A program made the translations under genes and the position numbers. Shown piece by piece: positions 56 to 4,209 of a stretch of 64,000 bases of DNA. A model generated the notes under the pieces. It was not told the origin of the DNA, did no database searches, and saw nothing but the letters and a program-made list of their open reading frames with translations. The stretch's first letter is position 1; each line of letters opens with the position of its first letter. The stretch comes from Escherichia phage vB_EcoM_G37-3. The stretch is from sequence record MK327941.1; one strand, given 5' to 3'.

Positions 56-1642
56 ATGAAAACTACCAAAGAACTGATGGAAAAATGGTCCCCGCTGCTG
101 GAGAACGAAAAACTGCCGGAAATCGCAACTGCGTCTAAGCAGAAACTGGTTGCTAAAATTCTGGAATCTCAGGAAGCGGATTTTGCTGTAGACCCGATCT
201 ATAAGGATGAAAAAGTTGTTGAAGCATTCGGTGGCTTTATCGCAGAAGCCGAAGTTGCTGGCGACCACGGTTATGACGCATCTAATATCGCGGCTGGTCA
301 GACTACCGGTGCAATCACCAACGTAGGTCCGGCTGTTATCGGTATGGTTCGCCGTGCTATCCCTAACCTGATCGCATTTGATATTTGTGGTGTTCAGCCG
401 ATGAGCACTCCGACTAGCCAGATCTTTGCAATCCGTTCTGTATACGGTGGCGATCCGCTGAAATCTGGTGCTCGCGAAGCATTCCACCCGATGTATGCAC
501 CTGATGCGTTCCATAGCTCTCTTGCTGCTAAAGGTGCAACCGTAGGTTCACCAACTGGTACTGCATTCGCTAAACTAACTCTTTCCCAGGCTATCGCTGC
601 TGGTGATATCGTATATCACACCTTCGCAGAAACTGGTATTGCGTATCTGCAAAACGTAACTGGTGATTCTGTAACCCCTACCAAAGCAGGTCAAGAAACC
701 GAAGACGAAACTGTTATGAAACTGATCGAAGAAGGTAAATTGGCTGAAATCGCTTATGGTATGGCTACTTCCATTGCCGAAATTCAGGAAGGCTTTAACG
801 GTTCCAGCAATAACCCGTGGGCTGAAATGTCAATGCGTATTGACAAACAGGTTGTTGAAGCGAAATCTCGCCAACTGAAAGCCCGTTACTCTATCGAAGT
901 TGCGCAGGATCTGCGTGCTGTACACGGTATGGATGCTGACGCTGAACTGAATGCTATCCTGGCTAACGAAGTTCTGCTGGAAATCAACCGTGAAATCGTT
1001 GACGTCATCAACTTTACCGCTCAGGTTGGTAAGACTGGTATGACTCAGACCGTTGGTTCTAAAGCTGGTGTATTTGACCTGCAAGACCCGATCGATACTC
1101 GCGGTGCTCGTTGGGCTGGTGAATCCTTCAAATCTCTGATCTACCAGATCGACAAAGAAGCTGCTGAAATCGCTCGTCAGACTGGTCGCGGTGCGGGTAA
1201 CTTTGTTATCGCTTCCCGTAACGTTGTAAACATCCTGGCTTCTGCTGATCAGGGTATCAGTCTTGCTATGCAGGGTGCTGCAAAAGGTCTGAATACCGAC
1301 ACCACTAAAGCTGTTTTCGCTGGTGTTCTGGCTGGTAAGTACAAAGTGTTCATCGACCAGTATGCTCGTCAGGACTACTTCACTGTAGGTTACAAAGGCG
1401 ACAACGAAATGGATGCTGGTATCTACTATGCTCCGTATGTTGCTCTGACTCCGCTGCGTGCAACTGACCCGCAGTCTTTCCACCCGGTTCTGGGCTTCAA
1501 GACTCGCTATGGCATCGGTATTAACCCGTTTGCAGACAGCAAATCCCAGGCACCGTCCGCTCGCATCACCTCCGGTATGTTGAGCAAAGACAGCGTAGGT
1601 AAAAACGCATACTTCCGTCGTGTATGGGTTAAAGGTTGCTAA
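56..1642 (+). CDS. 23: Major capsid protein gp23
   Basis: 528 aa; near-colinear with remembered T4 gp23 (PEIA...AKI..., GDHGY, MVRRAIPNLIAFDICGVQPM, KNAYFRRV). Confidence 0.95.
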   Translation: MKTTKELMEKWSPLLENEKLPEIATASKQKLVAKILESQEADFAVDPIYKDEKVVEAFGGFIAEAEVAGDHGYDASNIAAGQTTGAITNVGPAVIGMVRRAIPNLIAFDICGVQPMSTPTSQIFAIRSVYGGDPLKSGAREAFHPMYAPDAFHSSLAAKGATVGSPTGTAFAKLTLSQAIAAGDIVYHTFAETGIAYLQNVTGDSVTPTKAGQETEDETVMKLIEEGKLAEIAYGMATSIAEIQEGFNGSSNNPWAEMSMRIDKQVVEAKSRQLKARYSIEVAQDLRAVHGMDADAELNAILANEVLLEINREIVDVINFTAQVGKTGMTQTVGSKAGVFDLQDPIDTRGARWAGESFKSLIYQIDKEAAEIARQTGRGAGNFVIASRNVVNILASADQGISLAMQGAAKGLNTDTTKAVFAGVLAGKYKVFIDQYARQDYFTVGYKGDNEMDAGIYYAPYVALTPLRATDPQSFHPVLGFKTRYGIGINPFADSKSQAPSARITSGMLSKDSVGKNAYFRRVWVKGC

Positions 1643-1727
1643 TATAAGCCATTCCTGAAAAACTTCGGTCGGGTGCAATACCCGACTTATCATAAACCTT
1701 ATGACAGTGTAAAGTGTTAATTCCAAA

Positions 1728-1757
1728 GGGAAGACTCGAAAGGGTCTTCCCTTTTGC
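1728..1757 (+). terminator. Rho-independent terminator after gene 23
   Basis: GGGAAGACTC-gaaa-GGGTCTTCCC hairpin followed by TTTTG. Confidence 0.6.
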
Positions 1758-1771
1758 GTATTATATCCCGT

Positions 1772-1779
1772 TATAAATA
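1772..1779 (+). promoter_or_regulatory. Late-promoter-like TATAAATA in the 23-24 intergenic gap
   Basis: Exact TATAAATA; no long ORF follows for about 360 nt. Confidence 0.4.
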
Positions 1780-2142
1780 AGGTTGCAAGCCTATATTCTA
1801 TTTGGAGCGAAAATAGATACACACAACAAAGACAGGAAGATGCAGAACATCGGTGGGTTGCGATCCTAAATCCGGTGGCTATGATATGTGATTGATTTTG
1901 ATGCGGGATTTATTAAAACACAACAAACAATTCCACCAATTTTCGTAGTAACTGCATGGCAAAGGACCAATGAATGAGATGAGCGTTCATGCTGTGATAT
2001 TGGGTCGGATAGATTTGGTAGATATACAGATCTGGTGTATGCCGACCTTGTTATGACATTCCAGCGTGACGCTAGCGGTAATTTTTTGGTTTTGGTACGC
2101 TGTTCCCTGAATTAACCCAAAATTCTCCATAAGGAGGAATGC

Positions 2143-2295
2143 ATGAGTAAGAAAGAAAACAGCTATGTTATGACTCGTAAGGAATACAACGAATTGATGT
2201 TAGCATTAGCTTATGCAATTATTCGTTCTGATCATGCAATTAATCTGGTAAACAAAGTTAACCGTAGCGTTGATAATGTTTCTAGGAAGAAGTAA
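2143..2295 (+). CDS. Small hypothetical protein (50 aa)
   Basis: ATG preceded by AAGGAGG at proper spacing; ORF MSKKENSYVMTRKEYNELML...; below the ORF-track length cutoff. Confidence 0.4.
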   Translation: MSKKENSYVMTRKEYNELMLALAYAIIRSDHAINLVNKVNRSVDNVSRKK

Positions 2296-2334
2296 GTTTA
2301 TTTTTGGAATCCTTTGGATTCCTTTTTCTTTTTG

Positions 2335-2342
2335 TATAAATA
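2335..2342 (+). promoter_or_regulatory. T4-type late promoter for gene 24
   Basis: Exact TATAAATA about 38 nt upstream of ATG 2380. Confidence 0.6.
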
Positions 2343-2379
2343 TGATATATCCATTAAGGCAAATACAGGATTCATAAAC

Positions 2380-3621
2380 ATGACTCATATTTTTACTGAA
2401 CTGTTGCGGGAATCTACTTCCTCAGTAGCTAACCAGACAGCGCGACCGCAACTATTATCATTAACTCGCGCGGTAAACAACCTGATTTTCTCTGATCTGG
2501 TAGCAATCCAGCCAACGGATCAACCAGTATCTGCATTGTACGGCCTACGTTATCTTAATCATGATGGTCAGATGACTTTCCGAACTGCTGCAACCTACGG
2601 TGGCGCGGTTGGTGATCGCACAGAGATTGAAGAGTTTTCAAAAGAAAAATCTTATGACGAAGGCGCACTATTCAAATCAGGCGATGTTGTATACGAAGTT
2701 GTGACCGCTGGTACAGTCGGTGAAGATGCCGAAACTCCAGAAGCTGCGATCTTTAAAGGCGTAATGACAAACAAAATTCGTTTCTATAGCGATTGTGCAT
2801 CGGTAGAATACTTTGAAGATAAAAACACCGAAATTGCGTCTACCTCTATGCAGTTTGACAAGTGGCAAGTTAATGTAGGTTCTCGTAAACTGAAAACCTC
2901 GTTCACCACTGAATTAATGCAGGATCTTGAGGCAAGCCAAATCAACTCTGAAAACTCTGTAATTGATCTTCTGGCTACTGTTGCTTCCGAAGAGATCAAC
3001 AAAGATATTATTCAGAAGTTGATCACTGTATCATCTCGCTATAAAATTAAAGGGATCACCCCTGATGGCGTACTTTCTCTCGTTAGCGTTCAGGATGCAC
3101 CAACACAAGCGCGTGAACTTTACCGCTATGCTTGCGAGATGAGCAATCAAATGTTGCGGACTTCCTCCTTTGCTGGTACATACGTTTTGGCGTCTTCTCG
3201 CGTGGTTGGCCTCCTGCAATCATCCGGTTGGATGGAAGAAACCGACAATGCTCTAAGCGAAGGTCGTCTGCGTTGCGGTCTGGAAGTGTACGCAGACACG
3301 ACAACACCTTTCGATTATATGCTCGTTGGTTGTAAGCACATGATCGGTGATATGGAGAGTGTAGGTTCTCTGTTCTACTCCCCATATACAGAAGCCGACG
3401 GCGCTGGCGCGTATAAGAGCGTAATTGACCCTAATAGCTTCCAGCATCATGTAGCTATTATGAATCGTTATTCACTCTCTGTCAACCCATACACATCAAA
3501 AGTTGATCAGGAAGAACACCAGGTCATCAAGGGTGACGATTGGGGTAAAATGGCTGGGCGTTCAGAAATGTCCTACATTTTAGGAATCGAACTGCCACCG
3601 CTTGAGATTGACAACGCTTAA
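2380..3621 (+). CDS. 24: Capsid vertex protein gp24
   Basis: Homology to T4 gp24 (ELLRESTS, KWQ..V.SRKLKT, MAGRS); start placed at internal ATG 2380 with upstream AAGG. Confidence 0.9.
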   Translation: MTHIFTELLRESTSSVANQTARPQLLSLTRAVNNLIFSDLVAIQPTDQPVSALYGLRYLNHDGQMTFRTAATYGGAVGDRTEIEEFSKEKSYDEGALFKSGDVVYEVVTAGTVGEDAETPEAAIFKGVMTNKIRFYSDCASVEYFEDKNTEIASTSMQFDKWQVNVGSRKLKTSFTTELMQDLEASQINSENSVIDLLATVASEEINKDIIQKLITVSSRYKIKGITPDGVLSLVSVQDAPTQARELYRYACEMSNQMLRTSSFAGTYVLASSRVVGLLQSSGWMEETDNALSEGRLRCGLEVYADTTTPFDYMLVGCKHMIGDMESVGSLFYSPYTEADGAGAYKSVIDPNSFQHHVAIMNRYSLSVNPYTSKVDQEEHQVIKGDDWGKMAGRSEMSYILGIELPPLEIDNA

Positions 3622-4209
3622 CTAAATATCTAACCAAGACAAGTCAGATCCGCCAAAGATTTTTTCGACGGCGGATCTATTTTCTTGATGATATAAGTTA
3701 AAACATGGTATCCCATGTCTACGGGCAACATAAACAGCAATTCGAGTTCCTCCCGAAACGATTCCATTAACTTCTTTCGCCCAGAATATCACACAATCTA
3801 CAGGGTCATCAAGTGTCTCACCTAAGACTTGAGCGACATTTCTAGAAAACAGATTTTGCATGTATAACGGTATAGAACGAGGATTATCATAAACGTGTTC
3901 TAATTCATCCATCGCCAGATTTTTTTGTTCTAAGGTTTGCCATGCAATCACATCATGACCGTTATGCTTGTGGTCATAAAACTTCCAATTTGGAATGAAA
4001 ATTTTTCTATAATCTGGATCGTAATACTTCATGAAAGCATTGTCCATACCGTAAGCCCCTCCAGAATGCGCTACAACGCGATTTTCTGACAATACCCTCC
4101 CAATGGTACTAGCCATTATCAAAATGTCGCTAGGCGCTTTTCTAGAGCCGATTAAAGCACATCTACGAAGTGGTTTTACTCCAAATAGATCTTGTAACTG
4201 GTCAAACAT
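3622..4209 (-). CDS. SLOG/DprA-like Rossmann-fold protein (hypothetical)
   Basis: 195 aa; ALIGSRKAPSDIL...VVAHSGGAYGMDNAF resembles the DprA/Smf nucleotide-binding core; GGAGG RBS before ATG. Confidence 0.4.
   Translation of the reverse strand: MFDQLQDLFGVKPLRRCALIGSRKAPSDILIMASTIGRVLSENRVVAHSGGAYGMDNAFMKYYDPDYRKIFIPNWKFYDHKHNGHDVIAWQTLEQKNLAMDELEHVYDNPRSIPLYMQNLFSRNVAQVLGETLDDPVDCVIFWAKEVNGIVSGGTRIAVYVARRHGIPCFNLYHQENRSAVEKIFGGSDLSWLDI

Follow-up and report, generated by a model that had tools for sequence, protein, structure and literature searches.

The spacer between capsid genes 23 and 24 of an RB49-like Krischvirus: probable remnant of a late accessory cassette retaining one conserved small gene

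The 23–24 interval and its sequence elements

In phage T4, the interval between gene 23 and gene 24 contains segD, a homing endonuclease gene of the GIY-YIG family, which shows that mobile genes can settle at this site. The PeSL model views the hyperplastic regions of T4-like genomes as modules bounded by promoters and stem-loops (PMC2839356, PMC4122927); PMC2839356 does not mention the 23–24 locus. T4-type late promoters, which depend on gp55, gp33 and gp45, have the core consensus TATAAATA as given in PMC1524935. Our literature searches returned no paper discussing the 23–24 spacer of the phages treated here, the small open reading frame (ORF) within it, or the gene cassette described below, and yielded neither proteomic nor ribosome-profiling data on the product of the ORF.

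Escherichia phage vB_EcoM_G37-3 (MK327941.1) is an RB49-like Krischvirus of the T4 type. The stretch of its DNA that was analysed, 64,000 nucleotides in length and hereafter called the window, opens with the head-gene cluster; all features described here lie on the + strand. Gene 23, encoding the major capsid protein (56–1642; from the ORF list, and annotated as gp23 in RB49 and relatives), and gene 24, encoding the capsid vertex protein (2380–3621; from the ORF list and the RB49 annotation), border a gap of 737 bp (1643–2379). This gap is shared at 96–98% identity with 52 GenBank phages, RB49, Phi1, JSE and GEC-3S among them. An earlier note on this DNA had put the distance between the two capsid genes at about 740 bp and had described two hairpins after gene 23, an exact late-promoter motif at 1772–1779 and a 50-codon ORF at 2143–2295 preceded by an AAGGAGG Shine-Dalgarno sequence. 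All of these are present, and its statement that the T4 interval is a site for accessory genes agrees with the location of segD. We consider it highly probable that the spacer is the decayed remnant of a late accessory cassette of which one gene is still alive. This interpretation as a scar left by a two-step deletion at microhomologies appears to be new, while the ORF itself has already been annotated as encoding a hypothetical protein.

The two hairpins after gene 23 differ in character. The stem-loop at 1667–1687 (−13.1 kcal/mol, z = −4.3) is retained in eight divergent loci, with two of its pairs changed on both sides, and it has no T-run on the + strand directly after the stem, the feature that would identify an intrinsic terminator. 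The hairpin at 1725–1755 (−20.9 kcal/mol, z = −5.0) consists of a 13-bp stem followed by a T-run (TTTT), persists with compensatory changes in every locus, and already carries a terminator annotation in TB34 and GEC-3S; we assign it as the intrinsic terminator of gene 23. Two further elements do not appear in the earlier note, namely a T-run hairpin at 2306–2322 and a second copy of TATAAATA at 2335–2342. The former is a 7-bp stem that continues into a T-rich tail (2306–2334) directly after the small ORF. Nine divergent loci retain it, the TB34, GEC-3S and G2248 records list it as a terminator, and its folding and conservation identify it as the intrinsic terminator of the cassette transcript. 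Both 1725–1755 and 2306–2334 thus combine a G+C-rich stem-loop with an immediate T-run. The motif at 2335–2342 matches TATAAATA exactly; with a spacing of 37 nt to the gene 24 start codon downstream, it is taken to be the late promoter of that gene. Across the whole window, TATAAATA occurs seven times against 5.7 expected, so there is no enrichment.

An intact cassette in relatives and its fragments in the spacer

A cassette of 3.4–5.4 kb occupies the 23–24 site on the + strand in six GenBank relatives (G2248, Brandy, SSG23, SFHK24, UPWr_E1 and JK32) and in most metagenomic relatives; the short form of the spacer is found in 52 of the 58 GenBank isolates. The six cassette-bearing GenBank relatives align only to the right-hand part of the gap in the window. 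Following gene 23 and its two hairpins, the cassette begins with TATAAATA, a 102-aa gene, a ~570-aa gene and a ~309-aa gene. It ends with an optional gene for a coiled-coil protein of 437–656 aa (present in JK32 and several metagenomic contigs), the 50-aa gene, the terminator, another TATAAATA and gene 24. Every metagenomic contig found through divergent homologues of the 50-aa protein shows the same arrangement, and in all cassette loci the 50-aa ORF closes the cassette, with gene 24 as the next gene. In G2248 the cassette genes are G2248_00161–00164; the cassette genes are annotated as encoding hypothetical proteins.

The ~570-aa protein contains a short collagen-like Gly-X-Y run and weak tail-fibre segments from PHROGs. 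For the ~309-aa protein, AF2 predicts a helix of about 90 residues, consistent with a coiled-coil stalk, followed by a C-terminal beta-sandwich. Its first ~50 residues share 45–49% identity with the N-termini of the optional long coiled-coil proteins, suggesting interchangeable fibres with one anchor. Against Pfam, PHROGs and NCBIfam, the 50-aa protein and the cassette proteins gave only coiled-coil noise, families of unknown function and the weak tail-fibre segments, and the three cassette proteins had no match by sequence in the PDB. A Foldseek search of the 309-aa model against the PDB and BFVD found no significant match to a solved structure (E > 0.001); the likenesses that it listed were weak ones to fibre or receptor-binding domains and to one uncharacterised Edwardsiella phage protein. 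The architecture of the lost cassette proteins, with its Gly-X-Y run, coiled coils and weak PHROG and structural matches, marks them as putative fibre-like proteins, and it is also the basis on which they would be late virion proteins.

Pairwise alignment to the Brandy locus (L004) resolves the spacer of the window into a patchwork of three cassette pieces. Window positions 1600–1825 correspond to Brandy L004 464–676, a piece that takes in the region after gene 23, promoter, leader and the 102-aa gene as far as its third codon; positions 1826–1987 correspond to 2161–2321, and positions 1969–2420 to 3501–3950. What is left of the 102-aa gene is its first three codons (1817–1825, from the alignment to Brandy and G2248), in which the start codon has changed from ATG to ATA. 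The Shine-Dalgarno sequence of this former gene is likewise degraded, reading AAGGGGAG in relatives and ATTTGGAG in the window. The second piece (1826–1987; 88% identity to Brandy by blastn) is a pseudogene fragment from the interior of the ~570-aa gene, equivalent to about residues 393–447 of G2248_00162, and its tblastn matches fall in three frames and include stop codons. The third (1988–2132; 94.7% identity by blastn, from Brandy L004 3501 onward) is a pseudogene fragment from the 3′ end of the ~309-aa gene, with about 45 codons and the stop codon. Its tblastn matches lie in two frames, with a frameshift at a T-run near 2081–2086, and its translation matches phrog_20809.

Both junctions carry microhomology: ACA/CACA at junction 1 (1825/1826), and AGCGTT at junction 2 (1982–1987). 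Altogether the window lacks ~2.7 kb of the cassette. A 10-nt direct repeat, ACACAACAAA, is found at 1821–1830 and 1918–1927, and the 97 bp between its copies are deleted in JSE-type phages. The first copy spans junction 1, which makes the 97-bp deletion of the JSE group later than the primary deletion. The pieces therefore show co-linear homology to internal parts of intact genes, with the reading frame broken and the start lost, as is characteristic of pseudogenes. Such fragments can only stem from intact genes, and we conclude that material was deleted in the RB49 lineage, not inserted elsewhere. The suspicion voiced in the earlier note, that the gap might hold decayed gene remnants, was borne out by these fragments of two late cassette genes.

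The late-promoter motif at 1772–1779 had been regarded as an orphan in the earlier note, and this description has to be revised. In each of the 10 cassette-bearing loci that were examined, the 102-aa gene is preceded by an exact TATAAATA at the equivalent place. In the window the distance from the motif to the former start codon at 1817 is 37 nt, equal to the spacing at gene 24. By its sequence context, TATAAATA at 1772 is the cassette's own late promoter, and the first gene behind it has been lost through deletion, a mutated start codon and a degraded Shine-Dalgarno sequence. In JSE and phiS this motif is mutated to CATAAATA and the ORF is unaltered, so the 1772 promoter may be dispensable for expression of the ORF.

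The fragments have evolved as expected of sequence without a function. Among 14 genomes with the scar-type spacer, their nucleotide diversity (pi = 0.022–0.025) compares with 0.029 for the third codon positions of gene 24, and at least 12 independent indel events have occurred in 304 bp. This stretch of the spacer has experienced lineage-specific deletions of 97, 22, 14, 13 and 11 bp and many indels of 1–4 bp. Compared with the neighbouring genes, the fragments evolve without constraint.

Other origins for this stretch were weighed against the same evidence. The precedent of segD led the earlier note to propose the remnant of a mobile gene of the seg/mob type, that is, a decayed homing endonuclease gene. 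A tblastn search with T4 SegD gave a best E value of 29 in the gap and no match at E ≤ 0.01 in the 64-kb window, and blastn with the T4 23–24 spacer found no meaningful similarity. Moreover, about 310 of the roughly 370 bp between promoter and ORF are fragments of two cassette genes that do not encode endonucleases, and scans with Pfam, PHROGs and NCBIfam detected no nuclease domain in the cassette proteins. Nor did any part of 1643–2142 show a profile match to GIY-YIG or HNH families. Given the dissimilarity to SegD and the lack of nuclease domains, we reject the homing endonuclease idea, to which we attach almost no probability. No more credible is an ancestral short spacer, never coding, into which the larger phages inserted the cassette. 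The prevalence of the short form among GenBank isolates would fit such a history, but the window holds co-linear internal coding fragments of two cassette genes, complete with frameshifts and stops, together with the three initial codons of the 102-aa gene, their start mutated, and the more divergent relatives all carry the cassette.

If positions 1780–2142 encoded a late non-coding RNA with a function of its own, or formed a structured leader regulating the small ORF, this would account for a consensus late promoter with no long ORF behind it, and a hairpin of the form CUCC-AUAA-GGAG could occlude the Shine-Dalgarno sequence. This hairpin is absent from the more distant loci and was dropped as a candidate regulatory element, as it is not conserved outside the close clade. 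An Rfam scan of 1500–2500 at a permissive E value gave at best 21 bits, whereas the gathering scores are 114 and 72, and the two sub-threshold matches merely overlie the terminator hairpins. The predicted RNA fold of the leader (1786–2160) is no more stable than shuffled sequence (z = 0.13). The same stretch has repeatedly been shortened by the deletions listed above, and its diversity is near that of gene 24 third positions. Considering the fold and the lack of an Rfam family, we reject the small RNA or structured leader, including the small-RNA locus put forward in the earlier note, as very unlikely.

If the spacer is indeed what remains of a late accessory cassette, two deletions at short microhomologies in the RB49 lineage would have removed ~1.5 kb and ~1.2 kb, so that only the promoter with its leader, part of the interior of the 570-aa gene and the 3′-terminal part of the 309-aa gene were left. 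The two gene fragments would since have drifted neutrally, accumulating frameshifts, stops and further lineage-specific deletions, while selection would still act on the 50-aa gene, its Shine-Dalgarno sequence, the terminator and the promoter of gene 24. A late transcript of ~550 nt, started at the 1772 promoter or by read-through from gene 23, would end at 2306–2334, with ~360 nt of junk leader ahead of the 50-aa ORF. Its predicted product would be a small coiled-coil-forming helix that acts without the lost fibre-like proteins, with a likely role in late morphogenesis. Promoter use, transcript ends and the peptide itself are all deduced from sequence.

A conserved gene for a predicted 50-residue protein

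The gene that has outlasted its neighbours runs from an ATG at 2143 to a stop codon at 2293–2295. Its product is identical (100%) to RB49ORF162w, annotated as a hypothetical protein and named ORF162 in phi1, and matches the phrog_16600 profile end to end (residues 1–50 of 50, E = 1.5e-38). The Shine-Dalgarno sequence AAGGAGG at 2131–2137 is invariant in the 14 scar-type genomes, and a strong Shine-Dalgarno sequence is found at equal spacing in 15 of 15 homologous loci, despite the fact that the upstream gene differs. Among 5.8 billion proteins the family forms 16 clusters at 90% identity, which are 49–51 aa long and diverge down to 52% identity, and is confined to this phage lineage. Its members are 48–51 aa long throughout, with identity falling to about 50% and 15 columns invariant. 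An exhaustive HMMER search of 1.84 billion representatives returned four small 50%-identity representatives of 48–50 aa plus a repetitive coiled-coil protein, probably a spurious match, without linking the profile to any characterised family, and a scan of IMG/VR yielded two loci only. BLASTP found no similarity of the 50-aa protein to the cassette proteins, gp23 or gp24.

Comparison with the moderately diverged homologues at loci L005, L020 and L022 gave dN/dS values of 0.13–0.14 for the ORF; in deeper pairs of homologues the synonymous sites are saturated and the protein is retained. The low dN/dS, the constant length and the kept ribosome-binding site are together what purifying selection on a protein leaves behind. 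The earlier note had allowed for a micro-protein locus here, an idea that a non-conserved ORF would have refuted. The ORF proved to be conserved, and the idea is supported by a gene family of 48–51 aa with a dN/dS of about 0.14. Judged by the way its sequence has evolved, the 50-codon ORF is a real gene under selection, and is presumably expressed.

Within the RB49 group the ORF is even less variable than this would suggest. Among the 14 scar-type genomes it has a pi of 0.0033, no indels and two variable columns out of 153, against ~17 expected at the rate of the adjacent fragments (binomial P = 3e-6). None of its 51 third positions varies, compared with 44 of 414 in gene 24 (p = 0.009). Nucleotide identity of the ORF is at least 99.3% in 55 of 57 GenBank records, and in these phages gene 23 diverges by up to 8%. 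Variability within the RB49 group reaches its minimum for the 2.4-kb region at 2143–2442, with three variable columns in 300; the ORF, its terminator, the gene 24 promoter and the initial 60 nt of gene 24 all fall inside this stretch. This trough suggests either that the block was recently swept by recombination or that a nucleotide-level constraint applies besides the protein-level one.

Such invariance is by itself compatible with protein-level selection, with a recent recombinational sweep and with constraint acting on DNA or RNA, and the case for a protein therefore rests on comparisons between clades. It could be argued that the ORF does not encode a functional protein at all and owes its conservation to a recent sweep or to nucleotide-level constraint, for which the terminator, the gene 24 promoter or leader, and a recombination block are candidates. 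The low-diversity block does take in non-coding sequence and the start of gene 24, and the RB49 group lacks synonymous variation in the ORF. Between clades, however, pS reaches 0.2–0.9 and yet the protein and its length of 48–51 aa are kept at a dN/dS of about 0.14, a strong Shine-Dalgarno sequence is retained in all loci amid differing surroundings, and the invariant residues follow a heptad pattern. On this evidence we regard a non-functional ORF as unlikely, and we proceed with a selected protein-coding gene as the preferred reading.

AF2 run on the family alignment models the protein as one continuous helix spanning residues 12–49 (pLDDT 88.8). In one register, nine of 11 heptad a/d positions are hydrophobic, and it is on this heptad pattern that the invariant residues lie. 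A continuous helix with hydrophobic a/d positions is what a coiled-coil peptide would display, and the 50-aa protein most probably assembles into a coiled coil, either as a homo-oligomer or with a partner. The gene is intact where its neighbours have been lost, which implies a function independent of the lost cassette proteins.

What this function might be can be addressed with much less assurance. A role in late morphogenesis is a guess from the position of the gene and the class of its promoter. A bolder, tentative proposal, which we ourselves consider doubtful, is that the 50-residue peptide is a required late morphogenetic factor and, linked to this, that the cassette encodes undescribed accessory virion fibres. 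The peptide might, for instance, have its place at the capsid vertex or contribute to head assembly beside gp24. A required morphogenetic role would explain both the sole survival of the 50-aa gene and the near-invariant 300-bp block. If the proposal were true, the cassette of wild Krischvirus would comprise a collagen-like protein and interchangeable coiled-coil proteins sharing an N-terminal anchor, and the lineage that is obtained most frequently on laboratory E. coli would have dispensed with the cassette fibres.

Consequences for annotation and comparison with known systems

The deletion scar explains a long "intergenic" region whose annotation is inconsistent across more than 50 phage genomes. 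Phi1 ORF161.1, JSE_00166, GEC-3S BN201_0164 and TB34_019 are truncated ends of the 309-aa gene, and phrog_20809 matches such truncated proteins end to end. RB49ORF162w is in turn singled out as a micro-protein gene under real selection. The scar is ordinary genome decay, typical of the plastic regions of T4-like phages, and is not a new kind of element. It leaves the understanding of T4-like phages unchanged, and its practical value lies in annotation. Of most interest are what the conserved 50-residue helix does and what kind of cassette the wild relatives carry; the late cassette of wild RB49 relatives could have a bearing on host range or particle properties in therapy phages.

Among characterised proteins, those that come to mind for the lost genes are trimeric coiled-coil fibres such as the adenovirus fibre and the receptor-binding fibres of phages. 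The 309-aa protein resembles them in combining a helix with a beta-sandwich and in its weak matches, and differs in having no significant match to them in structure or sequence; the cassette proteins are, furthermore, absent from the window. A parallel in location is the T4 interval, which is the same interval of the head cluster and tolerates accessory DNA as the window does. Its segD gene, by contrast, lies on the opposite strand, encodes a nuclease and has no sequence similarity to the gap of the window.

PeSL modules, as set out in the papers cited above, are alike in that a variable accessory module has a stem-loop and promoter on both sides and is gained or lost between relatives; this likeness in layout is visible in the sequence itself. 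The PeSLs described there contain early promoters, whereas the boundaries of the 23–24 module carry late ones. The deletions in the window, too, set it apart, lying at short internal microhomologies and not between boundary elements. The nearest relatives of the spacer are the intact Krischvirus cassettes, which share with the window the site, the hairpins, the promoter, the leader, the last gene, the terminator and the gene 24 promoter. Of the remainder of the cassette, the window keeps only scraps of the 570-aa and 309-aa genes and three codons of the 102-aa gene.

Deletion history of the scar

The remnants of the cassette between genes 23 and 24 carry a 10-nt direct repeat, ACACAACAAA, at window positions 1821-1830 and 1918-1927, and the 97 bp between its two copies are missing from JSE, 011D4 and phiS. 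Since the first copy (1821-1830) straddles the junction of the primary deletion, the 97-bp loss was the later event. The truncated 3' end of the gene for the ~309-aa cassette protein corresponds to the PHROG family phrog_20809 (45 aa); matching fragments lie at window 1988-2132, at 1958-2095 in the compared locus L024 and at 2232-2390 in JSE (L007), and the fragment carries a small-ORF annotation in Phi1, JSE and others. Because the family matches this truncated end, phrog_20809 represents a pseudo-ORF fragment and not an independent gene.

GenBank isolates were set against metagenome contigs (L010-L023). The deleted form makes up 52 of the 58 records of cultured isolates. Among metagenomic contigs, the protein clusters that go with an intact cassette (on 74, 38 and 19 contigs) are more widely represented than the scar-type cluster (on 29). 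Bias in what gets isolated, or an influence of the host, could explain the difference.

Expression and conservation of the 50-aa ORF

The late promoter motif of the cassette (window 1772-1779) reads CATAAATA in JSE (L007 about 2130) and phiS (L030), and the 50-aa ORF downstream (window 2143-2295) is unaltered in these two phages. A changed promoter above an unchanged ORF suggests that transcription continuing out of gene 23 may be a further source of expression for the 50-aa ORF. The exact sequence TATAAATA occurs seven times in the 64-kb window, each time on the + strand; this total does not exceed the chance expectation. The block TGACAGTGTA(A/G)(A/T)GTG, located at window about 1704-1720 between the two hairpins that follow gene 23, is kept in all divergent loci compared.

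Among 14 RB49-type genomes, only 3 of 300 columns are variable at window 2143-2442, and none of the 51 synonymous sites of the 50-aa ORF varies; divergence in gene 23 of these genomes reaches 8%. Either a sweep or constraint at the nucleotide level would account for this trough. Beyond gene 24, a convergent 195-aa ORF (window 3622-4209, - strand) has its stop codon directly adjoining that of gene 24 without a spacer, and is annotated in one record (MIZ6) as a DprA-like recombination-mediator protein.

Cassette genes in carrier genomes

Where the cassette is present, its ~570-aa gene is broken into two ORFs in three loci, at a different place in each: Brandy (L004 984-2713; 250 + 327 aa) and the metagenome contigs L013 (3306-5019; 467 + 92 aa) and L017 (3399-5110; 379 + 157 aa). 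These splits suggest repeated independent inactivation, or else assembly errors. At its N-terminus, over ~50 residues, the 309-aa protein shares 45-49% identity with the corresponding ends of the coiled-coil proteins of 437-656 aa that only some cassettes encode; the regions concerned are L005 2694-2850, L006 1628-1810, L010 6659-6840 and L013 6017-6200. Judged by this likeness, the two kinds of protein look like alternative fibres with one common attachment domain.
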